64,000 nucleotides of DNA from a bacterium (GTDB lineage Bacteria > SAR324 > NAC60-12). Position numbers and translations under genes: made by a program. Location of the stretch: assembly GCA_965233585.1 (NCBI GenBank), contig CBDDTI010000212.1, positions 1-64,000 of the forward strand. Reading direction: 5' to 3'. Positions 15,101-35,800 of the stretch are shown piece by piece (the first letter of the stretch is position 1; each line of letters begins with the position of its first letter). Under the pieces are notes generated by a model, which saw only the letters and a list, made by a program, of their open reading frames with translations, searched no databases and had not been told where the DNA came from.

Positions 15101-15113
15101 TATTTGTAAATAA
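9180..15113 (+). CDS. Protein-primed family B DNA polymerase with HNH/EndoVII insert, 6 exons (~1134 aa)
   Basis: Exons 9180-10438, 10498-11054, 11116-11367, 11428-11603, 11670-12036 and 14320-15113. Splicing rebuilds HNAQGYDLHLI, YIDANNLYG, KLFANSTFGKFIENVR and FSDTDS. CHIC...DHDHVTG...AHSLCN insert. Confidence 0.95.
12177..12680 (-). CDS. Intron-nested antisense gene 1: acidic repeat protein with C-terminal Cys/His cluster
   Basis: This frame stays open in both copies despite indels. DVIPA repeats and C-x8-CRNC-x3-HH. Start codon uncertain. Confidence 0.62.
   Translation of the reverse strand: MDKVKLGRMMRRGKYEVLRAKWTEEEEEEEERFKLLPDPPLSETLPRPPLMWGGGCLRRFARGLIMMIRTAAASVADFVAGRPDVIPADVIPADVIPADVIPADVIPADVIPADVTPTDVIPVDVSPANEADVVEDDDFDEAKCVVGAGRTYCRNCRRYHHALVPQN
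12946..14115 (-). CDS. Intron-nested antisense gene 2: Gly/Ser/Trp repeat protein
   Basis: ~389 aa from MDKKDQEK with GGAWSS and RPVAPAWPSRTPYKSVPQ repeats. The minus frame is intact in both copies, while the opposite-strand frame is broken in copy B (TGA 37324-37326). Confidence 0.78.
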   Translation of the reverse strand: MDKKDQEKSKAFWLKVIKSGQEEATSSPTSGSSSAGAAAGGAWSSSGAAGGGSWASSERPVAPAWPSRTPYKSVPQKSGSESWKSASTTGSGSGGAWSSTKTGGTWSSSAALGGGSWSSSERPVAPAWPSRTPYKSVPQKSGSESWKSASTTGAGGGGAWSSTKTGGAWSSSGAVGGGAWSSTKTEGAWSSTKTAGAWSSSAALGGGSWTSSERSVAPAWPSRTPYKSVPQKSEPESWKSASTTGAGGGGAWSSTKTGGAWSSSGAVGGGAWSSTKTEGAWSSTKTGGAWSSSAALGGGSWASSERPVAPAWPSRTPYKSVPQRPESESRKQTSHRVSFDLSSQSTSKSKPPPYRHVEPSPTPEVRQVTAFPSVWSPSTARKVTKKIKI

Positions 15114-15176
15114 ATAAAACATATTGTTACTTTTATTTAAGAAAAAATTTTTAAATATTTTTCAAAAACTAGCAAA

Positions 15177-15848
15177 ATGGATGGTTTTGATTTAAGGTTC
15201 AGTATTCCTTCCAACATGTTAATTGTTGGCCCAACATCGAGTGGAAAAACAACGTGGCTTAAACATTTAGTGGTTGGTAGGCATGAATATTTTGCAACTC
15301 CACCAGAAACAATGTTGTTGTTCTACAAAGAACCACAAAAAGCTTATGAATACATGGAAGATGATATGAATCGAGACAAACGTTCAAACTCTCGCTTTCC
15401 AGCATTTCGTAAATTTAAAAGTATTCCAAATTCGATTGAAGAACTGAAAGATATTTTGGAATCATATCCAAGAAAAATGCCCAAATTAGTTGTTTTTGAT
15501 GATTATTTAGACGATGTTGGACAAATATTAAAACATTTTTTTACGGTTTTGACTCATCACTACAATTGTTTCACTGTTTTTCTGTGTCAAAATTTATTTG
15601 ATAAAAAAGGTGATTTGCGGACATTAAGCATAAACACGCAGTATATGGTTCTTTTTAACAATCCTCGGGACAGAAGTGCGGTTGCGCATTTGGCTAAACA
15701 AATTTTCCCCGGTCGAGTCGGAATTTTAAATAAAGCATACAGGGAAGCTGTTAACGGTCGAAGTCACGGATATCTCCTTCTAGATTTCCATCAACAACAA
15801 GACGATAAAGTCAGAATTCGAAGCAACATTTTTCCGTATGAGGGACTG
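15177..15848 (+). pseudogene. A32/FtsK-like packaging ATPase, copy A, last codons replaced by LTR
   Basis: Walker A GPTSSGKTT and Walker B LVVFDD. Diverges from copy B after GAGGGACTG at 15848. Confidence 0.9.
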
Positions 15849-16175
15849 TGTAAAATAATGCATTTATACGTTTCTATCACATGATGGTTCTCCGCGCCTT
15901 TCTTTCTTTGTACATGTATATTTTTATGTTGTAAAGTAAAAGACAAAAACCGTTGGATTTTTGTGATGGTATTTTCCCCCTTTCTAGACCGCCCAGACTG
16001 TGCAATGGATGCACTTGTCAGACTGGGGGAAAGTATTCAGTTATATTTGAACTGTCTATGTATACGGACGTGAAAATATATTAATTGCATGATTCAGTGA
16101 ACCAACGAGAACTTATTTAAGTGATCTGCGGAAACTCCGTAGATAACGATCATCCATTGAAACGAGAGTTTTACA
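15849..16175 (+). repeat. 5' LTR
   Basis: TGTAAAA...TTTTACA; direct repeat of 29390-29715 with several substitutions and indels. Confidence 0.95.
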
Positions 16176-16176
16176 A

Positions 16177-16194
16177 TGGTGCATCGTCCGGGAA
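16177..16194 (+). promoter_or_regulatory. Primer-binding site, tRNA-Gly(GCC)-like
   Basis: TGGTGCATCGTCCGGGAA lies 1 nt after the LTR, one mismatch from the complement of the invertebrate tRNA-Gly 3' end as I recall it. Confidence 0.8.
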
Positions 16195-16241
16195 AGACGG
16201 TAATCTCTTCCCTGGGCCATTAAAAAGTAAAAAGATCGGCC

Positions 16242-16463
16242 ATGAGGCGTTGGGTCTCAGAGGACAATTTAATTTGCCAGACCCAGACGCTTGAGGAGAA
16301 ACCAGTGATAGGATTTTGGGATTTGCTATATCCACAACATCCCTTCGTGAGGCTGAAGCCGATAATAGAAGCACACGAAGACGATCAGGTTTTCTGCCTC
16401 GAATGTGGTCGATCCCATACGGCAAGAGAAGTTTGCCGTCCAATTAATCGCGAGAGAGCGTAA
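16242..16463 (+). CDS. Small upstream ORF with C-x2-C-x3-H-x5-C cluster
   Basis: 73 aa ATG ORF fills the leader between PBS and gag and ends 15 nt before the gag ATG. Confidence 0.4.
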   Translation: MRRWVSEDNLICQTQTLEEKPVIGFWDLLYPQHPFVRLKPIIEAHEDDQVFCLECGRSHTAREVCRPINRERA

Positions 16464-16478
16464 TAAAACTTTGAAATC

Positions 16479-18799
16479 ATGACCACCCCTCGTACCCGTG
16501 CTCAAGTTGCCGCCAACCCTACCAATGTCGAACTGAGGACCAAGGCCTTCGACGAAAGAAGAGCCTTATGGCCTCAGGAAGACCAGCTAGAAGAGGAACG
16601 TCTTCGAGCGGTAGGAAAAACTTTGGCTGATGCCTTACTCAATTCTGTAAATGTAGTAGGGGATCTCCAAAAAGAAGATCTTGCCAGATTATTCTGCAAG
16701 ATCTTGACCATCGTAGACTTTCGTCAGTATTTCCTCATTGACGAAACATCGGTCTCTATTCTTCAGAGGCTGATGAATGACTTTGAGGAATACACAAATA
16801 AGTTGGTCGATCCGGATGTCCCGGATCAATATATACGAGACCTCCCTTTGGAGAATCTCAAGGTCATGTTGACGGCAAGGCGGGGTCAGTTGTGTGCCCG
16901 ATTGGAGCTCTTGCGAAGCTCCCACAATCAATTGCAAAGTGGGCAATCGATGTGGGACGATGTTTTCATCGAATATAAAACGGTGGGCATCCAATTTTGG
17001 ATGGAAATATTGGACCTGGCTCTGGTCCTCCGTTATAAGTCTGGGGATGCTCTAAAGGAAGAGCTCCAATCCAGACAAGTGTTCTTACAGGAGAGTTTGG
17101 CCCCTGTAATGGACATGTTTTTGATGGAGGTCCGGGATAAACAAGTCAGGAGACCGATACTTTACATTGATTATATGGTCATGTCACCCCCATCTGAAAC
17201 CCTCCGAGGTGATGATTCAGAAGCCTCAGTGGACACGGTCATCCGACCTCCAAATGAAGAGGAGGTGGGACAGATGGGGGCGAGGGTCGAAGCTATGGCT
17301 CTTGGACCTGTCAATGTACCACCGGCAAACGCGACGCAAGTGCAACCGGAACGGGCAGCGGCTCAGGTTATGGGGAGGCCCGCTGAATTCAAATCTAAGG
17401 GCGCAAGCCTGAAGAAAATAATTTCGCTCCCTGGGGTTTCTTCGGACAGGAAACTTCAAATGCTCTCCCAGCAAATTGATCAGTTGGAGAAGAAGTCATC
17501 TGATCAATTGGACGCTCTTACTGGGAGATTAGGCATTAGAAAAGAGGAAGCGTCCTCGGCGGCCTATGGGGATGAAATGGCCGTCGCTCAATATAATGCC
17601 CTACCCAATGTCCAATTGCCGCCCTTCTTTGGTAATGCCTTGGAGTTCCATAAATGGTGGCAGATGTTCATCTATCTGGTGGATAAAAATCCAAAAATCC
17701 CCCAGATTATGAAACTGCACATTTTACAGAAGTCGTTGAAGGGGAGTGCGGAATACCTTTCACATCAGGTCGCCTTCAGTCCAGCAAGTTATGAGATCTT
17801 GAAGGAGAACGTCAAGGATGCGTTTGACGATTCTGATGCTGCACTCCGCCTCTTGGCAGAACGGGTCAAAGCCTGGCCCGTCCTAAAGAGAAACGACCAC
17901 AAGCAATTAGCGGACTTCACGGGGTTTGCCACCAACTACGTAATGCAGTTAATGCAATTCGAGGATGGTGTGTCTTTTAATCCCCGCAATGTCAAGAACG
18001 AACTCTATGCAAGTTTTACCCACAAATGATGGGTGATTACCAGAGAGATTGGGCGCAAGAGGAATTCTTGAAGGGCAAAAGATCAGACAGGGATCAGGTT
18101 GTCTGGCTTTTGCAATGGCTGAAGGCGAAGCTAAAGGTGGCGAAAGCCTACTATAATGCAGACCCTAACCGCCAACCTATTCCATTGGGTATGCCGTCTG
18201 GAATTGCTATGGAATTCAAGAGCGGCAAAAACCAGACGGCAAAGGGAGGCTCCAACTCGAATGGCGGTAAGGGAGCAACGGCGGAAAAGAAAACGGTTGC
18301 AACGGCAGATGGTTTATATGCCACAACCGAAATTTCCGACGCAGAATACGTTGCTGCCACCAATACTCGAGGAAGGGGGAGGGGCTTCCGCGGAGGAAGG
18401 GGCGCTGCGAGAGGACGCGGCAACCAATCCAATCGCGGAAGAGGAAAACCGCCAAATGGCACCCCTTCTGCTGGACCTCCACAGGGTAGTTATAATGAGG
18501 GAGCACAACAGAATCCCTCAACAAATCCTCAAGGCGGGAAAGTTCAATACCCGAGACCCGAAACGAGTTATGATCTTTGGCCCTGCCTATTTTGCGGACG
18601 ACATCAACATCCAGCAAGATTTTGTCCGCAACATATGAAACCGGATACGGTTTATTTGAAGGCTGTGGAGGCGCTTTTGTGTCTCAACTGCCTTCGAGCC
18701 GGGCATTATGCTTCTTCATGCCCACACCCTGGCTGCTCGATGGAGGGGTGCAATGCACGTCACCATAAACTTCTACATGGACATAAGAAAAACCAGTGA
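16479..18799 (+). CDS. gag: BEL/Pao Gag (frameshift at ~18026)
   Basis: DUF1759-type LPNVQLPPFFGNALEFHKWWQMF; knuckles CLFC..H..C, CLNC..GH..C and C..C..HH..LH. One added A at CACAAATGATG would fuse the two ORFs. Confidence 0.9.
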
Positions 18800-18831
18800 G
18801 AAGCTGGTGGGTCCTCATCGGATCCATCTGA

Positions 18832-21800
18832 GGGGGTGGGGGACCCACCACAGCCAGTGTACAGACAAATCTTGACAATAAGACTATCCCTCTACAAGTG
18901 CCAATATCCGAATGTATATATCAAAATAGTGCTAAAAATTATAAGTGTTCCCCGAATGACCCTGGAAAAGAGACCAGTACCCCTTATTCGTTACTTCCTG
19001 TAGTTCGCGTTCCTGTTCAAACAAAGAAGAACGTTGTCTACTTGCGTGCCTTACTTGACACCGGCTCTACTGCATCCTTCATAACGGTAAGTGCCCTTTC
19101 TAGGATTCCGTCCGTTGTAATTGAATCAGAATTCCCCTTAACTATGTGTACAATACAGGGGGTGAGTCGAGAGCCAAGTAGAAAATTGCGCGTAAATTTG
19201 AAAGTAAAGGGGGGGGGTTTGCCGATAGACTGTTATCAGGTCCCGCGCATAATGCAAGTCAGTCATGGGTTCGAATTGGATGGCCCGACGCTGCTTGCAT
19301 TACAAGAATATCTCTTAAATGAACCGGTGTCTGCACGGGGAGGACAATTAGATCTCCTCATTGGAGTACCGGTTTTATGGAAAATTATTAGGGGAATTCA
19401 TGCGCGTATATCTGATTCGCTTGTCCTTCTCGACACCATATATGGTAATGTCATATGTGGGTCGGCCTCAGGAGTGGGGAAAACGGTTGAGGCACGGGCC
19501 GCGACCGTTGAGGACTTGAACAAACGGGTAGAAAAACTATGGCAGTTAGACTCTTTTCCTAGGGATGATTCGGAATCGAAATTAACGATGGATGAGATAG
19601 CAGCAGTCGAAAGCATGGAGAAAAACCTTAAGTTTGATAAAAGCATAGGGCGCTTTCAGACAAGGTTGTTGTGGAAAGGAAAACCCGATTTGGTAAATAA
19701 TTATGCGGCTGCGAAGGCGAGGTTAGACGGACTAATGAGGCGTCTACGCAAGGATCCTCAAGTTAAAGCCGCTTACAAATCGGTAATTTCGGAATTCATC
19801 GACCAAGCCACGGTAGAATTAGTTACCTGGGAAACCCTCGCTCAGATGCAGGAAGCGTCTAGGGTCGATTTGTATTTCCTTCCACATCGGGCGGTTTATG
19901 ACCCCGGAAGGGTCTCAACAAAATGCCGGGTGGTAATGGACGCCTCGGCAAAAACGGCCACAGGCAAATCTTTGAACGATTGTTTGTTGCCTGGGCCTCC
20001 ATTGCAGCAGCAGATTGCTGCAGTGGAGCTACGCTTTCGAAGAAGAAAGATAGCGTTAATCGGGGATTGCAAGAAAATGTTTTTGCAAGTAATTGTACAC
20101 CCCGATGACCGTCCGTTTCTCCGCTTTCTATGGCATGATCCGGATGATATCCATGCTGTTCCAAAGGTATATCAATTCAGAACTTTGATATTTGGTGCAG
20201 CAGATTCTCCGTTTCAAGCTATCTCATGTTTCCAACGACTCGTGGCCGATAGGAGACGACGAGGAAACCTCTCATCCCTTGAGGAAAGAGTTTGTGAGAC
20301 CATTCTTCGGGACACTTACGTTGACGATATCACCACTGGGGGTGATTCCGTTAACGATGCCTTTGACATGTACAAAGGCCTAAATAAGTTATTAGGATCG
20401 GCTCATTTTAAGATCCACAAATGGGCCACCAATTCCCCTGAACTTCTGAAAAGAATTCCGGAGGAAGAAAGAGCACCTGCAACTGAAAATGAGGATTTTG
20501 ATTGGCTGGAAAGCGATGAAACTTCCTCTTTGGGTATCCGGTGGGACCCCCGCACTGATTTGTTTATATTTAGGCGGTACGTTTCCATCGGACAATTCAA
20601 TGACGACACTAAAACGGCAGTTGCTAGCTTGCTGGCCAGACCCTTCGATCCGCTGGGTCTGATTTCTCCCTTTATTCTTTTGGCGCGGAAGATTCTCAAA
20701 CAAACGTTTGAGGAAAATTTGGGGTGGAAAGATAAATTAACGGGTGAAATGCTCGGGTCGTGGCAACGTTGGCTTTCCTATCTGCCTGATTTGGAAAAGG
20801 TCACGTTTCCCCGACACGTGCCCTTTACGCCAGACACAGAGATTCATGTGTTTGGAGATGCAGCTGCAAATATGGGTCATGGAGTTGCAGCATATGCACG
20901 TACCCCCGTTGGCAACAACGGAAAATTTGAGACGCATCTCCTTTTCGCTAAATCACGCATTAACCCTAAGCGAGACATAACGGTCCCCAGACTTGAGCTT
21001 GTCGCATCTTTGCTTTGCGCGCAAACAGCAGAGATGCTGCACAAAGAGCTTGGGGTTGCTAGGGATAAAATCTATTGTTATTCAGATTCAGAAACTGCGT
21101 TATGGTGGCTAACAAAGCCTCCATCTGCTTTATTGCCGTTTGTTTCGAATCGAGTACAAAAGATTATTGAGCTTGGGTACAGGTTCAATTACGTGAACAC
21201 AGCGGCAAACCCGGCAGATGTTGCAAGCCGTGGCTGCACGCCGGATGAACTCTTGTGTACATTGTGGAAAAAGGGACCCAAATTTTTATCGATCCCCAAT
21301 AGTGAATGGACCCCTCCTAAAATTGACTTTTCTAAAGTGGACAAATTGCAGGAGGTTAAAAAAGCAAATGTCTATAACTATTCTTCCTTTGTCAAAAGAA
21401 TTGGAAGGGGGGCTAATCGTAAAATCGTTAATTTGGAAGATTGCTACGGCGATCATGATGAACTTTTACGCCGCATTGCCATCCTCAAAAGTGTGGTGGT
21501 GTTTTGGCGGGACAAAACCAAAGGTAAAGTTCGAGGTCATTATGACAAATTACTCGCCAGCAGTCATATCCATTTCGCTCGGAAGTATTGGATCAAGCAA
21601 TCGCAGGAAAAGGAATTTCCTGCAGAGCTTGCTGCTTTACAAAAGGGGCAGCCTATCCCAACCGGATCTAGGCTTCTTCCTTTGAATCCTCAGCTAGACG
21701 ATGAAGGAATAATGAGGGTACACGGCAGGGTGGTGGAATCAAAGATTTCCCCGGAACAAAGGTATCCCATCATTTTACCCAAAAATCATACGTTTACATC

Positions 21801-22923
21801 GTCACTGATTAAGAAGGTTCATGATGAGAATAGCCATGCACCTGTCGATTGGCTTCATTTCCACATCAGACAGCAATTTTGGATTCTTTCGAGCAGACAA
21901 TTGATACGGTCTGTCCTAAGGAAATGTTTCGAATGTCAAAAAGCAAATGCAAGAAGAGGTCAACAAATGATGGCCCCTTTGCCTGCCAATCGTGTCAACT
22001 TTGAGCCACCCTTTTCAAGAGTAGGTGTCGATTATACGGCGAAATTTTCTATAAAATCGACGTACCGGGGTTCAACTCCATATCCCTGCTACCTGGTGAT
22101 ATTTACATGTTTTGTCACCAGGGCAGTGCATTTAGAGATTGTCCTATCCGATGAAGCGGAAGGATTTTTGATGGCCCTTAAGAGGATGATTAGCGCCAGA
22201 GGGCATCCGCAGCATATGTACAGTGATAATGCGAAATATTTCATTAGAGCTGATAAGGAGATTGCTGAGACAATCGACAAGAACAATGAAATCATAAAAG
22301 ATTTCTCAGAACAGCTCCGTTTTCACTGGCATTATTCTGTGGAATATCATTCTTCGGGGGGTGGGGTATGGGAGCGTATGGTCAAGGCCATAAAAGTACC
22401 TCTCAGGAAAGTCTTGGGAGACTCTTTATTGACCTACGTAGAACTTTTAACGGTAGTCAAGGAAATCGAGGCACAAGTTAATGATCGCCCTCTTGTCCAA
22501 GCTTCGGAAGACACTTTTGAGGTCATTACGCCCTCTATGCTCTGTCTTGGCAGGAGAATCAAACTTTGGCCCGATTTCTTCGCCGAGACCGATTTAAGAC
22601 AGGAATCATCGGTAAGACTTCGATGGGAAGTTCGCAAGGAATTGGTAACCAAATTCCGCGAACTTTGGTTAAAGCAATATTTGCCACAATTGCAAGAACG
22701 GCAACGGTGGCGAACAAAAGAACCCAATTTGAAAATTGGGGACTTGGTTTTGCTTGAAACCGAAAACAAAAAGCAATTTCAATGGCCAATAGCCCGGGTG
22801 AATAAAATCATGCGCGGTAAAGACGGACTCGTGCGCACAGTACTTGTTCGAACCAAAACCAGCCGTGGTTTATTGCGAAGGGGTATCCATGAAATTTTTC
22901 CTCTCGAGTCTTGTCGTGAATAA
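18832..22923 (+). CDS. pol: BEL/Pao Pol (protease, RT, RNase H, integrase)
   Basis: ALLDTGS, YVDD, FGDA/LELVA/YSDS, H..H/C..C, GVDY..SDNA..WERMV and a DUF5641-like tail. Frame open from 18832. Confidence 0.96.
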   Translation, partial: GGGGPTTASVQTNLDNKTIPLQVPISECIYQNSAKNYKCSPNDPGKETSTPYSLLPVVRVPVQTKKNVVYLRALLDTGSTASFITVSALSRIPSVVIESEFPLTMCTIQGVSREPSRKLRVNLKVKGGGLPIDCYQVPRIMQVSHGFELDGPTLLALQEYLLNEPVSARGGQLDLLIGVPVLWKIIRGIHARISDSLVLLDTIYGNVICGSASGVGKTVEARAATVEDLNKRVEKLWQLDSFPRDDSESKLTMDEIAAVESMEKNLKFDKSIGRFQTRLLWKGKPDLVNNYAAAKARLDGLMRRLRKDPQVKAAYKSVISEFIDQATVELVTWETLAQMQEASRVDLYFLPHRAVYDPGRVSTKCRVVMDASAKTATGKSLNDCLLPGPPLQQQIAAVELRFRRRKIALIGDCKKMFLQVIVHPDDRPFLRFLWHDPDDIHAVPKVYQFRTLIFGAADSPFQAISCFQRLVADRRRRGNLSSLEERVCETILRDTYVDDITTGGDSVNDAFDMYKGLNKLLGSAHFKIHKWATNSPELLKRIPEEERAPATENEDFDWLESDETSSLGIRWDPRTDLFIFRRYVSIGQFNDDTKTAVASLLARPFDPLGLISPFILLARKILKQTFEENLGWKDKLTGEMLGSWQRWLSYLPDLEKVTFPRHVPFTPDTEIHVFGDAAANMGHGVAAYARTPVGNNGKFETHLLFAKSRINPKRDITVPRLELVASLLCAQTAEMLHKELGVARDKIYCYSDSETALWWLTKPPSALLPFVSNRVQKIIELGYRFNYVNTAANPADVASRGCTPDELLCTLWKKGPKFLSIPNSEWTPPKIDFSKVDKLQEVKKANVYNYSSFVKRIGRGANRKIVNLEDCYGDHDELLRRIAILKSVVVFWRDKTKGKVRGHYDKLLASSHIHFARKYWIKQSQEKEFPAELAALQKGQPIPTGSRLLPLNPQLDDEGIMRVHGRVVESKISPEQRYPIILPKNHTFTSSLIKKVHDENSHAPVDWLHFHIRQQFWILSSRQLIRSVLRKCFECQKANARRGQQMMAPLPANRVNFEPPFSRVGVDYTAKFSIKSTYRGSTPYPCYLVIFTCFVTRAVHLEIVLSDEAEGFLMALKRMISARGHPQHMYSDNAKYFIRADKEIAETIDKNNEIIKDFSEQLRFHWHYSVEYHSSGGGVWERMVKAIKVPLRKVLGDSLLTYVELLTVVKEIEAQVNDRPLVQASEDTFEVITPSMLCLGRRIKLWPDFFAETDLRQESSVRLRWEVRKELVTKFRELWLKQYLPQLQERQRWRTKEPNLKIGDLVLLETENKKQFQWPIARVNKIMRGKDGLVRTVLVRTKTSRGLLRRGIHEIFPLESCRE

Positions 22924-23276
22924 CTGTCAAAAAGGGGAACAATGGAGGGGGATGAATAGCGGGGACTGAGCAAGTGCAAAGTCACCCTGCAGATGCAATT
23001 TTGACGGGAAAAATTTATGTGTCTGCGCTCATGTTGAAAAGGAACACACATGACAGGTGCAGGGGTAAATGAACTTTCTGTCAGAAACAGGCAACATCTG
23101 CCGTTGCCTTTTGACAGAATGTACAAAGTCTAATGCCTGTGCAACTTTTATGACCTCCTTTCATTGAATGCATGTGCATGAATTCCGTTATTTGCACAAG
23201 CAAACAGGGTAAACAACTCAGTAACCTAGATTGAAGTCATTAACTTTCTCCGATTTTTTGGGGAGATAAAATCCCC

Positions 23277-23311
23277 TATAAAAGGCTTGAGTTTTGGCTT
23301 CAAAATCATTC
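23277..23311 (+). promoter_or_regulatory. Internal TATA plus initiator for the first accessory gene
   Basis: TATAAAA 23277-23283 and TCATTC 23306-23311 at canonical spacing; ATG at 23369. Confidence 0.65.
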
Positions 23312-23368
23312 ACTTCTGAGTTGTCTTTGCATTTGGACAAGTTAAAGAAGAAACTTAAACCTTCAACA

Positions 23369-26300
23369 ATGCTTGGTCACGTCTTGCCGATGGTCATGGG
23401 GATTTTGGGGAATGCTGGCCAATCAGCACCCCCTTCCTCCAATCCGTTGCATTCGACTACTTCGAATGTAATAACGGTGGAGGGTCCCTCTGTTAATGTG
23501 GGGATACCCGGCATGCAAAAGCAACCGGGGGTTCAACAATATCCCCACTCATGGCCTTCGGCGACGGCGCCCTTGCAGTATCCGCCGTATCCGCCCTACT
23601 CCCCTTACGCAATGCCGAATTACTACCCCTATCAACAGCCGTATGGGGGCTATCAACAAGCGCCAGCCCTTTCCAGATGGACTCGTATGGTCCATGAACT
23701 CTTGGAATGGGAAAAGGGCTTAAATGATAGTGATTTTGCACAATTAGAAGAGGCCTTGAATGTGTCAAGTATTTCGACAATCCGAACCGCTTCCTCACCA
23801 TCGAGTAAGTGATCGTTTGTGTTGTTAGAGTCCCCTTCTGATTGCTAATTTGTTTATAGTCACTCGGCCGCGTTTAAATCTGTCGTTGACCAATCGACTG
23901 TCATTGGCTCGACAGACCTTGAATACGACTACATCGATTGCACCCACCGTTGAAGCCTACTCGAATACGCCATCACCGACTACGACAATGCAAACCACCA
24001 CCGAAATGCCTCAGACAACATCGACGATGTCGACAACCACCGTCAAACTGATTCCATATTCCGAAGAAACTGGACCCTTTCCACCTTTGTCCATAACCCA
24101 AGCTGCCCTCATCAAGGTGTTGGAAGAAGCTGTTAAAGTTGAACACCAGCGCCGCGAGAGGGAAAAGGTCATCGCTCGCCAAGAGTTACAGCAGCAAAGA
24201 CCCCGTCGTCATGCTCAGGAATCTGCTTCCTTTCAAAGGACGGTAGCTTCTCCTCGATGTCCTTGTGGAATCTCTTGGCCCGGAATCCGCGTTTGGGGAA
24301 TTAGGTTTGGACACTGGGGTAAAAGGTTTCCCCGATTTGGATGCCCTTGCAAATCCGGATCCGGTAAGCGTCAACACAACGAAGAACCTCTGAAGAAGTC
24401 TAACGAAACACGTCCAGTGTCACCCTTCGGAAAGTGTCCTACTCTTTTGACAGCGGCCAAGGATCTCATACAAATTCCGAAGAGGATACCGGTTCCACGG
24501 TGTTTCTGTCCCGATGCTCCTTCAGCCTCGGAGAATTCTACCAACATCAACTCCACCTCCAGCTATTCCTCATGTTACTGCCTTACTCCTGCACAGCATA
24601 AACGCCTTGAAGAAGATCTCGGACATCGAGTGAAGCGTCTTCATTGGTACCAGCGTTGGAAGAAATGTGCTGGCAAGGAGTTGGAAAGAACAAGACGACA
24701 TCTGCTGGAGGGCGCTGACCAGGAAGAACAAGAAGCTGTTGATGAAATACAACAATCCGAATCAGGAAAGCTGCCGAGGTCAGGACGTAGCAAGGGGGGT
24801 TTCGGATTCAACTTCGGAAGAAGAGGTGGTTGGTTTAATGGCAACTGGAGACAATTCGGACAACGAACAAATGCCAACACTGGAGGTACTTGGGGTCGGG
24901 CTCTCCCTGTTTTAGGGACTTCGCTTTTTGGAAATAGGGGTGGAACGAACACACCCCCCAGAAGTGATTCGCTGCCCGATCTGTCCCTGAGTGGATTGAA
25001 CGCAAGGTTGTTGAATCTACGAAGAACGCCATCGGCTACGGATTTGACTAGGACCAATCCAACATCAGCGAGCAGGACCTCCAGCACGGCAACGTTGGTG
25101 GATGTTTCCCCGAATTCTCCAAGCGTCCTGCCTTCCGGGTCAACTAGGCAATTGTCAAGAACTGCTTCGCAAGAAGTCGCGTCCTTGACTGGAACGATTC
25201 CAGCTTCACCGCCATCCGCATTAGCGGGTGCACCAAATGACCTCTACATGAGGATGGCTTCGTTCCGGCCTATTAATCCGGCGAGGGACTCCGCGAGATC
25301 ATCGGCAACGGGGGCTTCGTCTTCGGTGAGGGCTTCAACTGGAGGAGCGCTTTCGACATCAACATCAATGGAAATGACTCCTATGGCCAATCGTCCTCTT
25401 CCCGCCACTCCACTCCAGAATGTCCGACTTTCTTCTACTTCGTCATCGTCGGGGGCCGACACTGTCATTCCGGTAGGGGAACCAATCTATCCCAACTACA
25501 GGGATTTTTCATCGGTCCCTCCGGAACACATGAAGTGGCACGACGTGGTGGGGTCTAAATGGAGGCATTGGGGACATCGTCACCCTTATCTGCAGGGTGG
25601 AATGGGGCTAGCGGGAACGTCGGCAATGTCAGGAGGGGTCTTTCTTGCAATGCAGGCCCTTTCCAATAAAATGATGAACCCCGGTCCGGATGCTGAGTTG
25701 GTGAAAGCCAATCAGCAATTAAGCAACAATCTGGGAGAAGTAACAAATCGTCTTCACCAGGAGGTTGGGAAATCAGCCCTGGCCACCGACGTATTGGTCA
25801 ATGCTGTCCATACCGGGGACGTTCCTGCAGCGATCGTGGAAGAGGCAAAGGCCATAAAGGAGTCAAAGAACATCGACAAAAACGTTAAAATGACAACTGG
25901 ATCATCAAAGAAGTTACAGATCACCACCACGCCGACGGCAAGGAGAACTACAGCCACAACTGTCACTCCCCCGCCGGCCTCTCCAAACTCAAGAGCAACT
26001 GGATCAGATCTTCCGGATTCGATTTGGGATCTTCGTGCGCCATCCGTAAACAAGGAAACGCAAACACCAAACGAAAGGACACTAATCATTCCGGATGATC
26101 GATCGGCGCATCATCAGTTGTATCAGCGGTTTGGAAGAGCGATCTACGATCCGTGGTGGAGGCCGCCAGAACACCTCAAGGTAACCGATCCTTATCATTT
26201 TAGGCTTGGCTTGATGGCACCTGCGATTTTGGCGTCATTAGAAACAGAGCATCCTCCGGCATCTCGATATCCGCTGCAGCACGAGTACGATCGGGCTCAT

Positions 26301-27014
26301 GGACCCAGGGGCTACAACCCTTACTTGGTGATTCCCAAGAATGAGCGCGATCGCCTCATGATGCAGTCGGTCGAAGACGGCCAAGTCAATCTGGCCAAAT
26401 ATGGACAGCTACTTGAAGAAGCGGCCTTAAAACATCAGCTGCGGCACACAAAGACCAAGAATGTGCCCGCAGAAGTGCCGCAACCGGAGGCAGCTCGCTC
26501 AAATGATCGCTCTATCGACTTGTCGGAACTTCAAGCCGGCCTACGACGGATCGAGGAAGAACACCTGGGGATTCTGGATGAAGCACCTGAACCGCCAGTC
26601 GAAAGGCCTGGCACATGGGTTGAAGATGACCAGCCCTTGCAAACGACACCCAAACCCGCCGACGTTGTCACGGAGTCGCAGTGGAAGCCACTGCCAACCT
26701 CGAAGACCCGGAAACGTCCTCCAAAGCACAAACGAAAAGCCAAGATGGAGGAGCTTCCGGAACCGGCAGAACTTCGTTCAAGTGGATGGGTTTTTACCAT
26801 TGACCTTTCCACTGATGAAAAGAAAACGGTCTTTGGTTTGGGGGTAATGTTTTTGCTTGGGTTAACTCTATTTGTATTGTCCTTGATCGGAATTGGTCTT
26901 TGCCGGCTTGCCGCTTGCTGCAGAAGGTTTTGTGGGGGTTACAAGCAGGCATCAACTAATCCCGATCGTGTAACTCCTGCAGAATGGGAACTGCAGGAGT
27001 TGAATTATGCTTAA
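23369..27014 (+). CDS. Spliced ~1196 aa type I membrane protein with multiple furin sites (unknown family)
   Basis: 55 nt intron 23805-23859 (GTAAGT...GCTAAT...TTTATAG) joins the two ORFs in frame. Hydrophobic N-terminus, RPRR/RVKR/RTRR, C-terminal TM; AATAAA at 27028. Confidence 0.8.
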
Positions 27015-27397
27015 ATTTGTCAGATAAAATAAAATTACAAAACAGCTACATTCATTCTGACTTCTTTCAATTTTTGGGCGCAATTTTGTTAGGATATTTG
27101 GCTCTTGATTTATCTACTTTTGTACATTAGGGGTTACTGATGAAGAGTTGTTTCGGCTACCGCGCCAGGTCCTGTATACCTCCTTTGTATAACAAAGGAA
27201 AATTCCCCGGGGGGAAAATTAACGGTTTTTCCCTTTTTTGCCTCCCTTTGGCGCGTGTCTAGACACACGTCGCGTCACAAATCCGTGAAACATTCGTTGG
27301 GGATACTTTTTCACCCAACACATACGGATTTTCTCATTCAGTTAGGATCCGCAGCTTGATTCGAAAGGTTATTTAAACGACATCAAATATTTTAACC

Positions 27398-29221
27398 ATG
27401 CTTCGCTTGTCCGTGATCTGCTTCCTGGTGGGACTGAGCCATTTGTCTTTGGCACTGGATGGCAACCAACTCCTCTTCACCGTTATCGGTGAAACAACAA
27501 GGGAAAGTGGTTATGCACACTTGGTCGTTCCGTTGCCAGTTCCGAATTTGAGTACTTCAACAGATGTTCTTAATGATCTCATTGAGACTTACCTCAAATA
27601 TACAATGAAGCCTAACAACATGTACCAAAAGACGGAAAGCTACGGAATTGATCGAATCCAGGCCAAGATCAATTTAATCTTGTCCTTAGCCCGTCAGGGA
27701 GGGTTTGTGGCGAAGGAGCTCCACTACGATGACGTCAATCTCATCATGGACGGACTCCGGAGCCTAGGATCTCGACGCAAGCGATCGGTCGCTGCCACAG
27801 TGGGGGCCCTGTTCGGGTTGGCCTCCTTCGGAAGCTCCATTTATAACACAGCCCAGCTCAATCGACTCAACGAAGACAGGCAGAGGATCGAAGAGAACCA
27901 GCAGTTCCTCATGGAGGAATTGATGGAACAGAACCTCAGAATCAACAATATAACAACTTTTATTGAGGTTCAGTACAAGGCCTGGGTCAAACAAGTCAAG
28001 TTGATCCAGGAGTCTCAGAGGCAGACAGTGATGGAGACGATGGGACACCAAATCCACCTCTTGGTCCAGGCGTTCCGAATGGAACTCACAGACTTTCTTA
28101 CTGGAATCACGAGGTTGATGGACCATCGGTTGTCACCACTCCTTGTACAACCCGAAGCCTTGGAAGAAGCCTTCAATTTGTTAAGGAATGCGGCAAGACT
28201 GAGGAACATGAGGCCCATGTCTGAGGATGCAGGGATTTTGTTTCAAGTCCCCACCTCAACATTTGTGGATGCACAAGGAAGACTTTTTGCGGTAACGCAT
28301 CTTCCATTGTATGCCGGGGACCTATTGAGACTTTACCGATATGTCCCGGCCCCGTTCCTCCTCGATGACCAAAAGGTTGCGCTGGAAATCATCAGTCCAG
28401 CGGAGTATCTTGCTTTGGATACTCATGGGATGGTTGGGAAGCAGTTGACTGCTTCCGAATTTCAGTTGTGCAGGCGTTTGGGCAATGTTTATCATTGTCC
28501 AAATATGAACTTGGTCAACAAAGATCTCAAGTCTTTGTGCTTGTACAACGTTTACAGCCAAATCGTCAACCACATCGAGGATACATGCGAGGTTAAGATT
28601 AAGTACCTGCGTAATCACGCGGTACAATTATCGACCTCGTTGTATCGGATCTTGGCCGTGAAACCGATTCAGTTGGTGATGGATTGCAAGGCAGGAAGCA
28701 ACGTCACCACAATATCGGGGGTTCATCTCCTCAAACTAACGGAGGACTGTCCCAAGGCTTCAACCAATGAATTTCTCTTCGTCCGGACACCTGACCTCGT
28801 GGGGTACCACGAGTTGATCACCCTGCCTCTCTTGTCTCAAGCAAAGGAGTGGCTGGGTGATATGAGCAAAGAGCTTGATCTGACTGAAGCGATGAAGTCA
28901 ATGGAGGATCCGGATGTGCCAGAACCGTCAATTCCGTTGCGGAAGTTCAGGAATAAGCTGCGGGGAAGAGATATGGAGGTTTATAAGATTGTTGAATCTT
29001 ATTTAACCACCATAGTGACGTATGGGGTTGTGCTCTTCTCCATTGGAGCCTTGTTTTGGTGCATATACCGGAGACGAAGAAGGACCCGACTTTATCGTCG
29101 ACCGGCTAATGCACTACATGGACCTGGGCGAGTCAGCGGGGACGATTCGGACGGAGTTCTAATGGGCAGGCCGGCTGTCGCATTACCTCCCTTGGTCCGG
29201 CGACAGTTTGTGCCGCAGTAG
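27398..29221 (+). CDS. env: Envelope class I fusion glycoprotein (baculovirus F / errantivirus Env-like)
   Basis: Signal peptide, RRKR|SVAATVGALFGLASFG furin site and fusion peptide, heptad repeat, Cys-rich region, TM and basic tail. Confidence 0.88.
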   Translation: MLRLSVICFLVGLSHLSLALDGNQLLFTVIGETTRESGYAHLVVPLPVPNLSTSTDVLNDLIETYLKYTMKPNNMYQKTESYGIDRIQAKINLILSLARQGGFVAKELHYDDVNLIMDGLRSLGSRRKRSVAATVGALFGLASFGSSIYNTAQLNRLNEDRQRIEENQQFLMEELMEQNLRINNITTFIEVQYKAWVKQVKLIQESQRQTVMETMGHQIHLLVQAFRMELTDFLTGITRLMDHRLSPLLVQPEALEEAFNLLRNAARLRNMRPMSEDAGILFQVPTSTFVDAQGRLFAVTHLPLYAGDLLRLYRYVPAPFLLDDQKVALEIISPAEYLALDTHGMVGKQLTASEFQLCRRLGNVYHCPNMNLVNKDLKSLCLYNVYSQIVNHIEDTCEVKIKYLRNHAVQLSTSLYRILAVKPIQLVMDCKAGSNVTTISGVHLLKLTEDCPKASTNEFLFVRTPDLVGYHELITLPLLSQAKEWLGDMSKELDLTEAMKSMEDPDVPEPSIPLRKFRNKLRGRDMEVYKIVESYLTTIVTYGVVLFSIGALFWCIYRRRRRTRLYRRPANALHGPGRVSGDDSDGVLMGRPAVALPPLVRRQFVPQ

Positions 29222-29389
29222 AGTTTTGATGTTAAGGGAAGCTTGTTGGAAAGGACCTCCATTCGGACTTGGCAACCCGAGTGCCTCTGGTGCCTGATCA
29301 GTACTATGAAGTAAATTGGGAGTCCTCTCCAACGACCTTCGGAGGTGCATATCAAGACTTAGCGGATAACCATCAGGTGACGGGGACAT

Positions 29390-29715
29390 TGTAAAATAAT
29401 GCATTTATACGTTTCTATCACATGATGGTTCTCCGCGCCTTTCTTTCTTTGTGTATATATTTTCATGTTGTAAAGTAAAAGACAAAAAACCGTTGGATTT
29501 TTGTGATGGTATTTTCCCCCTTTCTAGACCGCCCAGACTGTGCAGTGGATGCACTTGTCAGACTGGGGGAAAGTATTCAGTTATATTTGAACTGTCTATG
29601 TATACGGACGTGAAAATATATTAATTACATGATTCAGTGAACCAACGAGAACTTAGTTAAGTGATCTGCGGAAACTCCGTAGATAACGATCATCCATTGA
29701 AACGAGAGTTTTACA
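29390..29715 (+). repeat. 3' LTR
   Basis: Direct repeat of 15849-16175, preceded by purine-rich AGGTGACGGGGACA. Confidence 0.95.
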
Positions 29716-29767: not shown

Positions 29768-30432
29768 GTCAGCCATTTTTTCAGTTGTCCAATTTCGAAA
29801 AAATACTTTTTGCTCCTCTTAATTCATTAAAATTTGATACGTCATCAGTGATGCGCCTTCATAGACCGCGTGGTTGTTAATTTCATTTTCTAACATCAGC
29901 ATCTTCTTAATCAGATTTTTTCTTTTCTTTCCTAAAACATCTTGTGTCTGTTCGTCAAGGTCTTCATCCGTACTAATTACATTGTCATCATCAACATCAT
30001 CATCATCATCGTCATTATTTTCTGAACTTTCATCGCTCGGTTGTTCTACTTCAGTTGAAGCATCATCAGAGTTGGAAGTTAACTCTTCCGCTTCCGATTC
30101 CTCAATTTCTTCAGACATGTCATCTGATTCCGATGTTGACATGTTTTCTTTCTTTTTTTGTTTCTTTTCTAAAATGTTGATCAATATAGCAAATAAGGTT
30201 CACGTAATAAAAATATAAATTTCAAATTACCTGATCTTAATTGATGTTTTTTATTTGAATTCTTCTTGGAGTTCCTAGTTTCACGTTTCTTCTTACCAAT
30301 CTTTTTATCATTTTTTTCTGTCTCCTTTTTGGTCTTCTTTTTCTTCTCCTCCTGAATAATCTTATGATTGTCCTCTTTGGCATCTTTGATGCGAGAATTT
30401 AATTTTCTCTTTTTTACTGGTGATTCCTTCAT
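29768..30432 (-). pseudogene. Truncated copy of the 5564-6777 gene
   Basis: 571 bp deletion (equivalent to 5536-6106) and a premature TAA at 29819-29821. Confidence 0.8.
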
Positions 30433-30645
30433 GTTCTTTTCTTAAATGCGGGTTATTTACTCTAAACTCAAATTTACACTGACATTCAAAGTAAAAATCC
30501 CATTCTTTTAAACCTTTTAAAGTTTAATGTCTACCACCAACACGCGCTAGTTGACGCCCTAAAGGACCCAACACCGTCCATGTGTGAGGGCAAGTGATCG
30601 ATACGATCATCAAAATAAAATTTCAATTAAGAAACTAAGCTCGTG

Positions 30646-30950
30646 ATCAAGAAATTTAAAAACTCGAAATGACACGAACATAAATTTTCCGTTGATTGAA
30701 GTATTTAACGGAGATTAGATGATGTACATTGCATTGTCAACCAAGCACGTGTTCAAGGAATTTTAAAAACTCAAAATGTCATGAACATAAATTTTCCGTT
30801 GATTGAAGTATTTAACAAAGATTAGATGATGCACATTGCATCGTCAACCAAGCACGTGTCCAAGGAATTTAAAAAACTTGAAATAACATGATCATAAATT
30901 TTTCATTGATTTAAGTATTAAACAGAGATTAAATGATGCACGTTGCATCG
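30646..30950. repeat. ~106 bp tandem repeat, copy B
   Basis: Homologous to 6994-7296. Confidence 0.85.
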
Positions 30951-31182
30951 ACAATCAGTGACCATAAATTTACTGACAGAAATCTGATTGTTCAGGGTGT
31001 TGGGCAGGATTTTTCTCATGCAGTTATTTCCTTGCGCGATTGGTCTAGAAACCGTTTAAAAGTGAGCGCCTCACCGCTTAAATTTCTATAAAAGTCAGGA
31101 TTTATATTTTCCATTCCGTCATTCCATTTTCGTTCATTTACCAAGAAAAGTCTTCTACTCCAAGTCAATTCACAAGGTAAAA

Positions 31183-31974
31183 ATGCCTGGTCTTAACAAT
31201 TCTGAATCTCGTCAAGTAACCCATGACTCACAAGGGTTAAGGGTTACAGTACGTATTGCTGATGATTCAACATCAAACTCTAACATCAACAACAACAACA
31301 ACAACGCTGCCGATGATTCAACATCGGACCTTACAAACGTTATAAATAACTCTGATGATTTGACATCAACCATCAACTCTGATGATTTAACATCAGTATC
31401 TCCAACTGTTGTACCGATTGGACGAGGCAGGAGGTTGGCGAGACCAAATAACGTCTCAAACCCCTCTCCTGTCGGTCGCGGAGTTGGACGAGGTGGGTCC
31501 GTCCGCAACACCTCAAATATTTCGAATGTCGGACGTGGTGTTGGTCGAGGTCAACCAATTCAAAGAAATTCTCAACCATCTACTTCTGCTCCAAGGGCTG
31601 GGCGGGAGGTTGGACGCGGTGCTGGCAGGGGTGGAAGATATTTTCACCCTTACCGTCGTCCAGCAACCCAAACTTCGGCCTCTACCATAAACGGTACTCG
31701 TTCAAGTTCCGTTATTTTTATGGACAGCGATGGGGAAGAAGTTGAAGAGGAGGAGGAGAATTTTGATGGGTCGAATGACGACCACCTCTATTCTACTTGT
31801 GTCGAACATTTATTCAACAGAAGAAGAATAATTTTTGATATTAATGAAAGATATGCTGAGTCTTTGATTCAACGTCAAATACGCGCACTTGAGCGTCAAA
31901 ATATTTGGCTACAAAACGAATGCCAAAGATTAAACACTCAATTGCAACGATGTAGGGACTTGTTGTCTTCTTAA
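31183..31974 (+). CDS. RGG/acidic/leucine-zipper-like protein, copy B
   Basis: Intact homologue of 7529-8320. Confidence 0.8.
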   Translation: MPGLNNSESRQVTHDSQGLRVTVRIADDSTSNSNINNNNNNAADDSTSDLTNVINNSDDLTSTINSDDLTSVSPTVVPIGRGRRLARPNNVSNPSPVGRGVGRGGSVRNTSNISNVGRGVGRGQPIQRNSQPSTSAPRAGREVGRGAGRGGRYFHPYRRPATQTSASTINGTRSSSVIFMDSDGEEVEEEEENFDGSNDDHLYSTCVEHLFNRRRIIFDINERYAESLIQRQIRALERQNIWLQNECQRLNTQLQRCRDLLSS

Positions 31975-32059
31975 GATTTTTGAGTTTATAATGTATATAT
32001 TGTATAATGTAGTCTCAAATTAATGTTAAAATAAATTTTGATTTCAGAATTTTGTAAGA

Positions 32060-32779
32060 ATGCCGAAATCTTACGTGTGTCCCGAATGCCAAAAATCATT
32101 TGACAGAAAATCTTCTCGCGACAAACATCATTTATTCCGTCATCGCGAAACTACAAAATCTCGAGCTCGGACCCCACTTAATCAGTCGTTTCAATGCCCA
32201 TTTTGTGAGAACGAAGTAAGTTCCTTTAAATCGAGAAAAGATTTAGTCTCACACATTGACGCTTCTCATTTAGAGAATTTAAATTATTCATTGTACAAAT
32301 CTGCACTTAACGGAAAAATCAAATTTTATCGAAAACACATTTTTTCAAAAGAAACGCTTCAAGGATTTGTTGCAAATAAAAAAAATAGACAAGAAATAGT
32401 TGACGTTATTTGTCACGAACTAAGTAAAACTTTTACGGTTAAAGTTGCCCTTATTTTGACAGCGGCGTATCAAATTCCTGATTTGAATTCCGCTGCAGAG
32501 AAGAAGGTCATTGAGCCAAATACTACCAATATTGATGATACCTCTGATAAACCTTCTGATCAGTCGTCGCCTCAAATATTGTCCAATGATCGAGATGTCT
32601 TTGCTCTAAGAACCAGCTACATTCAATTCACGTCTTTTGATTCATCCCGCTCGTTAAAAGGCAAAGTCCAAAAATTATTACATAATTTAGTAAATAGAGA
32701 AGAAGATTTGTTAATGAGAGGTTCTGGATGGAGATTTGAATCTTTATCTTTTAGCGATATTCAAATTACTAGCATTTGA
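32060..32779 (+). CDS. Zinc finger plus putative terminal protein, copy B
   Basis: Intact homologue of 8407-9126. Confidence 0.75.
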   Translation: MPKSYVCPECQKSFDRKSSRDKHHLFRHRETTKSRARTPLNQSFQCPFCENEVSSFKSRKDLVSHIDASHLENLNYSLYKSALNGKIKFYRKHIFSKETLQGFVANKKNRQEIVDVICHELSKTFTVKVALILTAAYQIPDLNSAAEKKVIEPNTTNIDDTSDKPSDQSSPQILSNDRDVFALRTSYIQFTSFDSSRSLKGKVQKLLHNLVNREEDLLMRGSGWRFESLSFSDIQITSI

Positions 32780-32832
32780 TTTTTATGAACTTATTTTGTT
32801 TTATTCAAAAAAATTTCAAATAAACTTTGGAA

Positions 32833-35800
32833 ATGGATTTTATAGAAATTCCACGTGATTTAAAGAGATCTAATTGCTTGGAATGGAAAACTCGTTACGA
32901 TAAATTCAATTTTCTTTATCTGTACATTAGACATCTTTTTCCTGAGGAAACGGTTTCCGTTGTTGATTTTCGTCAAATGCCGATAAAGTATCTTAAAAAG
33001 TTTAATATAAGAGGTTTCAAGTTCCCTCTTCAATTTTGTAATTTAAAAAAATTTCTAAATAGAAACTCCCATTTACCAATTTCAATTTCAGTTTTTTATG
33101 AGAGTGAAGGTCAAGTTTCAAAGTTAGGTTTTTTTACTAATAAAAACAACAACAGAAACAAAAACATTTTAAATTTGTTAATGATAAAATATGATCCTGA
33201 AATCTCTCTTGAAAATGAATCTCCATTTTCTCGCCTTGCAAAACCAATTCAACGCAAGAAAAAATCTTCTTGTAAAAAGATTGTCAATTGTAGTTCTAAT
33301 GTCAAATTGGGTTTTTCTTCCAAGTTTAAAAAGATCAAGGATTTAAATCAACAGCACCATTTCTTTAAAATTACCAAAATCCAAGGTTTTTTGAATAATC
33401 GGGCCGGACTTTTGTCGGGTAAAAAAGCAGCTCAACAAAAGCACATCTATTGTGAAAAATGTCTGCTACATTTTCGATCCAAATCTAAAAAAGAAAAACA
33501 CGAAGACACTTGCTGTGATAAACAACGTGCTGTCTACCCAACCAAAAATTCCTCCATAAGTTTTACCAATCATAAACATAAATTTCATGCTCCTGTTGTT
33601 GGATTTTGTGATTTTGAATGTGTACTTCAAAGAAACAAAGAACGATCTAAATGTCAACTCTGTTTAAAAACTGAGTGTTTGTGTGCTTTTCCCACCAGTG
33701 ACGATATAAACGTGCATAGACCAGTGGGATATAGCTTGCTTTTTGTGGATTCGAATGATGAAGTATTTTTTCAAGAAGAATATGTAGGAGAGGATGCAGC
33801 CAAACATTTTTTGGATCGAATGCATTTCTATGAAAAAGTTGTTGACGAAAGAAAACAAAAATTTAGACATATTGTTAAAAATCAATCTAGTCCGCAAGAA
33901 TGGCAAATGTATCAAAAAGCAAAAGTTTGTCATATTTGTGGTGGTCAATTCAAAAAGTACTCTAGAAATTACAGAAAAGTTCTAGATCATGATCACGTAA
34001 CAGGGAAAATAATGGGCGCAGCTCATTCACTGTGTAACTTGACGAGATCCGGTCCCTTTCACACACCAATTTTTTTCCACAACGCTCAAGGGTAAGAAGT
34101 CTTAATTGGGTTTATTTATTAAACTAACACAAATTATGTACGCGTTTCAGATACGATTTGCATTTAATCGTGGAAGAGTTAAATGTTTCCAAATTTAAGC
34201 AAAATGTAAAAGTCTTAGCAAAAAACAGTGAAAAGTTTCGCACTCTTACATTGGGCAAATTTAAAATTCAAGATTCGTTAGAGCACATTTCTGGCAGTCT
34301 AGATGCACTTGTTCAAGATTTGAATCAGACCTCGAATTTTACCTTTCCCATTTTACAACAAATGGAAAGATATAAAAAAATTCCTGTTCGTCAAAAATCA
34401 AAAGCTTTAAAACTTTTAAAAAGAAAAGGCGTTTTTTGTTACGAACATTTCCAATCTCTACAAGAGATGAAGAAAAGTCGAAACCTTCCGTCCAAAGACT
34501 CTTTTTATTCTGAATTGAACGAAGAACACATTACGGAAGCGGATTATTCCCATGCTCAAGAAGTCTTTAAATCGTTCAAATGCAAGAATGTGGTGGATTA
34601 CATGATGCTCTATTGTTCTTTAGACGTTGTTTTGTTGTGTGAAGCATTTCTTCAGTATAGGAAAATGGTCATGGAACATTTTCAATTGGATCCTGTTTAT
34701 TATCTAGGTAAATTTTAATCTTTAACGTTGGATGTATCGTAATACTAAATTTATTCTACCTAAATTAGGAATTCCTGGCTTGAGTTTTGATGTCATGCTT
34801 ATGTTCTTTCAAAATTCAGAACAAGCTAAATCAGATAATAAGCTCACATCCGAATCTGAAACCTCCAAACCCCTCGGATCATTAGATGTCTATTCTGATC
34901 CTGAAATGGAGCGTTTTTTTACAAAGGGTATCAGAGGTGGGCAAAGTTTTATCGCTCAGCGTTATGCCAAAGGGAATAGCAATCCTAGAAAAAGCGGCGA
35001 TCACTTGTTATACATTGATGGTAATTTTATACTGTATTATCTGATAAAATCATTTTGTTATGATCCGTACAATTTTTCAGCCAACAACTTATATGGGAGT
35101 ATGGAAACTTTAAAATTACCAGTTTCTGATTTCCAATGGGTTCCAAAAACTGAATTTAAAAAATGGACTGCTGAAGATATTATCAACATTCCTTCGCAAG
35201 ACGATACTGGATATGCGTTTGAAGTTGATTTGCATTATCCTTCTCATCTTCACCAGGTAAATCCGATCTTTGTTGTGATACGTTATTTATTGTTTTGACA
35301 AGTTACACGATATCATTTTCAGGCACACGATCAATTTCCGCTGGCTCCGTATACAGACACGGTTTCTTTTAAACATCTATCTCCTTACAATCGCCGTTTA
35401 CTGAAACATCACTGCCCTCGAGATTATAGGAACAAAAGATACCGGAGCAAGAAATTGTTGAGCACTTTTTATGACCGAAAAAAGTACGTGGTGCATCTGG
35501 AAAACCTGCAGTACTACTTGAAAAAGGGCATGAAATTGCTGAAGATAAGAAAAGTCATGAAGTTTCGACAAAAAGCTTTTTTGAAGGAGTTCATCGAAAA
35601 GGTTACAAAGCTGCGATCAAATGCTCGCAATGACTTTGAACTCCGGCTTTTTAAACTTTTTGCCAACTCTACTTTTGGAAAATTTATTGGTAAGTTTTGA
35701 GATAAGATAATTTAATGATGTTGAGATTGTAAAAGACGCAAAAGCGTAAATTGACGCAGCGCGAATAGTAATTCAGTAAAAAATGAATTTGTTAAATACT

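Follow-up and report, generated by a model that had tools for sequence, protein, structure and literature searches.

A predicted intron-bearing gene with its own promoter and poly(A) signal between pol and env of a BEL/Pao LTR retrotransposon

Foamy virus transcripts end in the 3′ LTR, Ogre elements are known for splicing, and the hookworm element Atlas is an env-bearing BEL/Pao element. Penelope-like elements reportedly bear introns, as Arkhipova is said to have described in 2003. To go by the sections of the cited papers on which we draw throughout, LTR elements have already yielded separate examples of introns, of poly(A) sites and promoters in internal positions, and of extra ORFs (see also PMC6431247; PMC13524379; PMC7828637; PMC5718144). 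In plant Copia elements, the genomic RNA retains an intron together with an internal poly(A) site (PMC5580714; PMC3735527). In Arabidopsis EVD, early termination is closely bound to splicing, deletion of the intron leaves terminated RNA only, and U1 has been proposed as the protector of the unspliced RNA (PMC5580714). The Oikopleura elements Tor3b and Tor4b have an env promoter between pol and env and show no splicing from the LTR (PMC4402516), and foamy virus transcribes accessory genes (tas/bel-2) from an internal promoter (PMC7828637). Env-bearing BEL/Pao elements include Drosophila roo with an F-like env and mosquito elements with a chuvirus-like glycoprotein (PMC13524379), and extra ORFs between pol and env occur in LTR retrotransposons of rotifers and plants (PMC6431247).

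Here, we focus on an LTR element in a 64-kb stretch of DNA (the window), which is contig C212 in a bin of 747 contigs and 12 Mb. The five ORF-dense large contigs of the bin are bacterial, the other large contigs that were examined are non-bacterial, and a host gene read in the same bin has ordinary introns. The window is eukaryotic DNA binned into a bacterial genome. The host is likely an arthropod, based on TTAGG arrays in 3 of the 747 contigs and on the Inr/DPE grammar, both of which we take to be arthropod markers; a COX1 search of the bin returned bacterial COX1 only. Env protein and alignment searches for related loci found none in metagenome, viral or genome contigs or in 40 related prokaryote genomes, and DNA comparisons are therefore confined to this single bin.

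The element (15849-29715; all features lie on the plus strand) is, by its LTRs and Pfam domains, a BEL/Pao (Belpaoviridae) retrotransposon with an F-type envelope. The 327-nt 5′ LTR (15849-16175, TGT...ACA) is repeated directly, at 97.9%, as the 3′ LTR (29390-29715), which is preceded by a purine-rich tract. A primer-binding-site-like sequence beginning with TGG is found at 16177-16192, and there are no tRNA genes within the 64-kb window. Gag (16467-18799) carries DUF1759 and three Cys/His knuckles, read directly in the 17981-18799 translation. In the window copy, gag occupies two frames and its region has breaks near 18.0 and 18.8 kb; open frames are kept in pol, in env and in each of the two exons of the extra gene. 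Pol (18832-22923) comprises protease, RT, a Peptidase_A17/RNase H region, integrase and DUF5641, with Pao-type domains and PR-RT-RH-IN order (Pfam matches to RVT_1 (weak), Peptidase_A17, Integrase_H2C2 and DUF5641), and is under strong selection (dN/dS 0.016-0.084). At the gag-pol junction of the window (18797-18860), a strong inverted repeat rich in GC comes after the gag stop, and in three relatives (C640, C68 and C231) pol is in frame with gag after one stop codon, an arrangement of the read-through type. No major splice donor in the 5′ leader is conserved across subfamilies. The LTR has an initiator, TCAGTT (A at 16039), with a DPE-like GGACG at +28, and the same LTR position carries Inr and DPE in C231 and C399. 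Past the start site, the LTRs hold variant poly(A) hexamers only (such as AATATA or AATACA; in the 5′ LTR, AATATA), whereas the internal signal described below is a canonical AATAAA. None of the four two-LTR copies, in which flanks are rearranged or LTR ends clipped, has a target-site duplication. This is a property of these copies and not of the BEL/Pao assignment but, together with the breakage of several copies, it leaves current activity of the element unsupported. The combination of BEL/Pao gag-pol and an envelope is shared with roo, the mosquito elements and Atlas, for which the sections of the sources used here describe no intron-containing extra gene between pol and env.

Such a gene lies between pol and env of the window element. 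A TATA box, an Inr, an ATG at 23369, a 55-nt intron with a branch point, an AATAAA at 27028 and a TCATTCAGTT motif at env had been named in the original prediction, and all were found as described. The predicted core promoter (23277-23339) consists of the TATA box TATAAAAG at 23277, the Inr TCATTC (23306-23311), whose A at 23308 lies 31 nt from the TATA T, and a DPE-like GGACA (23335-23339). Exon 1 (23369-23804) contributes 145 codons plus 1 nt (436 coding nt), and its first 14 residues are hydrophobic. It is followed by the phase-1 GT-AG intron (23805-23859), within which the unspliced frame stops after two codons, and by exon 2 (23860-27014), with 1050 codons past the junction codon and a membrane anchor at ~26838-26894. 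Removing the intron brings the 23829-27014 frame into register with the ATG, just as had been predicted. The intron reads GTAAGT, a branch-point-like CTAAT (23845-49) and TTATAG, and contains 36% GC and 45% T compared with 52% GC and 22-25% T in the exons; its T-richness, GT-AG ends, branch point and restored frame are those of a U2-type intron. The AATAAA (27028-27033) is located 13 nt past the stop and is T-rich downstream. A motif, GTTACTGA..AAGAG.TGT (27132-27152), sits between the poly(A) signal and the env start and is conserved in 4/4 aligned elements, the spacers of which are otherwise dissimilar; the palindrome AAAGAAACC-GA-GGTTTCTTT is common to C231, C640 and C68.

In first-order Markov resamples, TATA plus Inr arose in 43 of 20000 and TATA plus Inr plus DPE in 2 of 20000 (497-nt spacer). 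A consensus intron arose 60 times in 20000 resamples with the 120-nt junction composition and in 3 of 3000. Because the patterns were chosen after inspection, these counts are upper bounds on surprise. Using consensus words for Inr and DPE, 5 of the 45 Inr-like words on the plus strand of the element have a DPE-like word at exactly +28, namely those in both LTRs, at 23308, at 27340 and one within env; on the minus strand, 1 of 49 does. In RNA folding predictions, the intron and the poly(A) region do no better than shuffles (z 0.05, 0.47 and 0.43). Conservation in relatives is a stronger test than resampling.

A TATA-Inr spacing of 31-33 nt is kept in all six relatives with the region (C579, C523, C231, C640, C68 and C47), and a phase-1 GT-AG intron in all four that retain the gene start (58 nt in C579, 60 nt in C231, 57 nt each in C640 and C68). 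C579, with ~69% nucleotide identity to the window, has TATA, Inr, ATG and intron at the same place; the splice ends of the two introns are kept and their interior is at shuffle level (0.52 versus a mean of 0.48). C231, C640 and C68 are more distant (~59% amino-acid identity to the window in pol). Their extra gene is homologous to that of the window across the hydrophobic/coiled core (E 7e-10). For exon 1 the match is suggestive (E 0.019), and hence the intron-1 positions are not callable as homologous across both subfamilies. These three genes likewise have TATA-Inr, a phase-1 intron, a C-terminal anchor and an AATAAA that overlaps the stop codon, so that AATAAA is found at the stop in 4/4 elements whose sequence reaches the gene end; in the C47 cassette, TATA-Inr and anchor are present. 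C523 retains pol and promoter and is missing the gene: at ~43600-43900, sequence is kept up to the Inr, and short repeats and a small zinc-finger-like ORF stand in the gene's place. In C579, the promoter-intron cassette (24370-28074) is found next to tandem repeats and Maverick genes and lacks an upstream pol, and homology to the window starts directly after the position of the pol stop.

A second phase-1 intron is present in C640 (92 nt) and C68 (95 nt) and absent from C231 and the proteins P0097 and P0098. Of the 15 protein clusters taken from public assemblies, 10 end in an intron-2 read-through signature (one is C68 itself), 2 read straight through the site and 3 are uninformative. The comparison of gain and loss of this intron, in trees that left out P0073, P0080 and later P0032 and P0067, gave p-AU 0.13. 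Phase was measured in seven introns and is 1 in all; base content, measured in five, is 26-36% GC compared with 52-54% in exons. Donors are near consensus (GTAAGT, GTAAAT and GTAAGA), and in C231, C640 and C68 an AATAAA overlaps the intron-1 donor (GTAAATAAA), whereas the window-type intron is free of AATAAA. Intron lengths fall into all three classes, 3n+1, 3n (with an in-frame stop) and 3n+2 (the second intron). Thus, splicing alone restores the frame everywhere, and frameshifting or read-through fails as a single mechanism. Exon dN/dS is 0.08-0.13 between C640 and C68 (four pieces), indicating purifying selection, and 0.09-0.22 between the window and C579 where dS is finite. The extra genes of C579, C231 and C68 carry true frameshifts; hence, not all copies are functional. 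Synonymous divergence between C640 and C68 is 0.19-0.26 in the extra gene (0.65 in the first piece) versus 0.04 in pol, which suggests that the extra-gene module was swapped between subfamilies. We conclude that the spliceosomal intron is very probably real and, with barely less confidence, that the extra gene is a stand-alone transcription unit; both are strongly supported by conservation in relatives and by selection on both exons. In four contig sets of unspecified kind from one sample, none of the 15 joints listed, out of 29, is at 23804/23860; the extra gene had a lower summed depth in these sets.

The product is predicted from sequence to be a membrane-anchored, furin-processed protein of ~1196 residues. 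It has a weak N-terminal hydrophobic stretch, S/T/P-rich parts, Cys pairs, one membrane anchor and 2-4 R-x-K/R-R sites, and a glycine-rich hydrophobic segment is followed by a heptad-like region predicted to be coiled. Since the N-terminus is a weak signal peptide, the topology is unsure. Family searches gave no Pfam match, best PDB matches with E 0.068 and 0.61 and no usable Atlas match, and protein searches returned unnamed relatives only (8, 50 and 15 proteins). From the gene layout, we guess that the protein might act beside the F-type env fusogen as a second surface protein.

The downstream gene (27398-29221) is env of the F type on all sequence features tested, namely a signal peptide, an RRKR site followed by a hydrophobic peptide, a membrane anchor and a Baculo_F match (E 4e-11). 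Its predicted core promoter (27335-27371) has TCATTCAGTT at 27335-27344 (A at 27340) and a DPE-like GGTTA at +28, a layout that mirrors the LTR promoter. The exact spacing is not kept in C231, C640 and C68, and an env TATA is found in C640 and C68 only. The TCATTCAGTT motif can, in addition, be taken for a 3′ splice acceptor, which is the rival to an internal start; we consider it fairly probable that env is transcribed from an internal promoter at 27340. A fusion of exon 1 to env through an acceptor at 27341 is ruled out by an in-frame stop before env. Tor3b and Tor4b have the kind of internal env promoter that is predicted here; they belong to another superfamily, and their RNAs are unspliced with one internal unit, whereas two are predicted here, one of them spliced with its own poly(A) signal. 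Foamy virus likewise places accessory genes under an internal promoter, but it is a vertebrate retrovirus, the accessory products of which are not membrane proteins, unlike the predicted anchored product described here.

Reverse transcription makes both LTRs of one element alike. The window LTR pair shares 29 sites relative to the C399 LTR, with 3 and 3 sites in the other patterns, and the C231 pair shares 138 sites relative to C640, with 0 and 2 in the others; the pairs of C640 and C68 are too close to be informative (4/9/3 and 6/2/1). The LTR pairs evolved in concert and, as both C231 and C640 retain intron 1, introns have therefore survived cycles of reverse transcription. Hence, genomic RNA must mostly retain the intron. 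The original claim that genomic RNA suppresses this splice stands to that extent, but the paradox is less new than implied, given EVD, BARE and Tor. Copies without intron 1, for which the original prediction had recommended a search, were not found, and exon 1 is joined to exon 2 in 0/10 window-type and 0/6 C640-type proteins that reach the exon-2 start in other assemblies, a test limited by gene calls on short contigs. As loss of the intron leaves the protein unchanged, its persistence needs a filter. Moreover, genomic RNA must pass an internal signal stronger than its likely own because the former is canonical and the LTR hexamers are variants.

How could both be achieved? The DNA shows the promoter motifs, the intron, open frames and the poly(A) hexamer, the conservation of all these, and purifying selection. 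From them, three RNA polymerase II units in series may be derived. The LTR start would give genomic/gag-pol RNA, the start at 23308 a spliced mRNA with its end near 27050, and the start at 27340 an env mRNA that ends in the LTR. By analogy with Arabidopsis EVD, splicing is likely coupled to cleavage at the internal poly(A) site. On LTR-started RNA, the unused donor would remain bound by U1 and the internal AATAAA would be read through. If genomic RNA were spliced, the last exon would become active and the RNA would be cut near 27050; lacking env, polypurine tract and 3′ LTR, it could not be copied. As a result, only intron-retaining genomes would replicate. We regard this full model, with own promoter, splicing, own poly(A) signal and retention of the intron in genomic RNA through such coupling, as evenly balanced between right and wrong.

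The comparison with EVD is a claim that the two might work alike. Like the present element, EVD and BARE1 are LTR retrotransposons whose genomic RNA contains a short intron of the host type as well as a poly(A) site in an internal position and, in the present element as in EVD, a conserved U1-type donor lies upstream of the internal poly(A) signal. However, EVD and BARE1 are plant Copia elements with the intron in gag-pol and RNA from the LTR, whereas here the intron belongs to an extra gene apart from gag-pol, which has a predicted TATA promoter of its own, in an animal BEL/Pao element, one sub-lineage of which has a second intron. The EVD intron holds a cryptic site, and in C640 and C68 it is the first donor that overlaps AATAAA. 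EVD terminates close behind its intron; here, 3.2 kb separate the donor from AATAAA in the window, and this distance, which is far for U1 protection in animal cells, is the main weakness of the coupling model. The second intron of C640 and C68 is ~0.6 kb from the signal; its absence from C231, P0097 and P0098 would, if a loss, be a leak of the filter. A further point against the model is that relatives do not keep the exact DPE spacing after the initiators of the extra gene and env.

The main rival dispenses with coupling between intron and poly(A) site. Either promoter identity sets RNA fate, LTR-started RNA skipping splicing and 3′ processing, or a protein or hairpin escorts the unspliced RNA; we consider this possible but rather unlikely. 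The LTR promoter is of the Inr plus DPE type and the extra-gene promoter of the TATA type, and in BARE, RNA from one TATA box is packaged unspliced and unpolyadenylated while that from the other is spliced (PMC3735527). An escort has a precedent in Cer1, in which export of genomic RNA requires CERV (PMC10309623), but no candidate export protein was identified here. A conserved inverted repeat upstream of the TATA box (23073-23122), which would be present on genomic RNA only, may be a candidate signal. Its predicted hairpin has z -6.3 (picked after inspection) and double changes in 2/19 pairs (3 sequences); it is without an Rfam match, however, and may instead represent TGACA DNA sites, of which 3-4 per spacer are found in 4/5 spacers.

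It is less probable still that processing is simply leaky, with spliced genomes arising and being selected against because either expression of the gene or a short unspliced product of exon 1 depends on the intron. Such a product is conceivable because every unspliced frame stops 2-3 codons into the intron, and the AATAAA at the donor in C231, C640 and C68 could yield an exon-1-only mRNA; one lineage is also missing intron 2. However, the window-type intron offers no such hexamer, donors are close to consensus, and no copy has lost intron 1.

A further alternative, which we consider very improbable, is that the intron persisted because the element spread as DNA, as Maverick/Polinton cargo or by segmental duplication, rather than through RNA. 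All four contigs with window-type pieces (C212, C523, C579 and C399) bear Maverick sequence, the window copy lies inside the ATPase end of a Maverick between 9.8-kb duplicated flanks, target-site duplications are missing and the C579 cassette is without pol. Against this, C640, C68, C231 and C408 have no Maverick matches, 40 of 101 eukaryotic contigs of at least 20 kb match Maverick as background, and both the concerted LTR pairs and the selection on pol point to RNA. Finally, a reading in which there is no intron and two separate ORFs, a frameshift or a decayed gene happen to carry splice-like motifs can draw on the real frameshifts in three copies and on the Met codons within exon 2, but is highly implausible in view of conserved splice ends, constant phase, three length classes and intron-like base content with selection on either side.

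The Maverick/Polinton surroundings have features of their own. The element sits at the 3′ end of the packaging-ATPase gene, and in place of a target-site duplication, 9.8 kb of Maverick DNA is directly duplicated on its two sides (6107-15848 and 29768-39472, 95.8%); the C399 LTR likewise begins directly within a Maverick ORF. Maverick DNA is also duplicated in inverted orientation over 2.6 kb (window positions 1-2651 and 39606-42256), the two copies being 98% complementary. Homologues of TBP and TFIIB are encoded beside the Maverick integrase (43153-44605) and on several related contigs, and a Maverick gene (7433-7530 and 31087-31185) has TATAAAAG...TCATTC at 32 nt, the same geometry as the extra-gene promoter.

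In the open-access literature, we did not find a complete promoter-intron-poly(A) gene with intron turnover in a BEL/Pao element; subscription papers, Repbase or supplements may describe one. For the extra ORFs of rotifers and plants and for Penelope-like elements, own promoter, intron and poly(A) signal are not reported together in the sections of the sources used, and those of PMC7998251 and PMC5718144 contain nothing on LTR-element introns. An errantivirus survey allowed pol-env gaps of up to 1000 nt and elements of up to 10 kb (PMC13524379), and annotation that requires unbroken ORFs or short pol-env gaps would miss lineages such as this one. The locus also flags an uncharacterised predicted membrane protein paired with an F-type fusogen.

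If the units are as predicted, one short intron and one canonical poly(A) signal must be processed on one RNA yet left untouched on another that overlaps it, which would make this animal system a clean test of the links among promoter choice, U1 binding and 3′-end formation. Tentatively, we picture a retrovirus-like lineage of animals with the layout of a DNA virus, which would combine three serial RNA polymerase II units, one of them a multi-exon gene of host style that encodes a second surface protein, with a splice-and-cut intron filter, and in which introns might be gained or lost during RNA replication. More generally, LTR elements can retain and turn over ordinary introns in captured genes.
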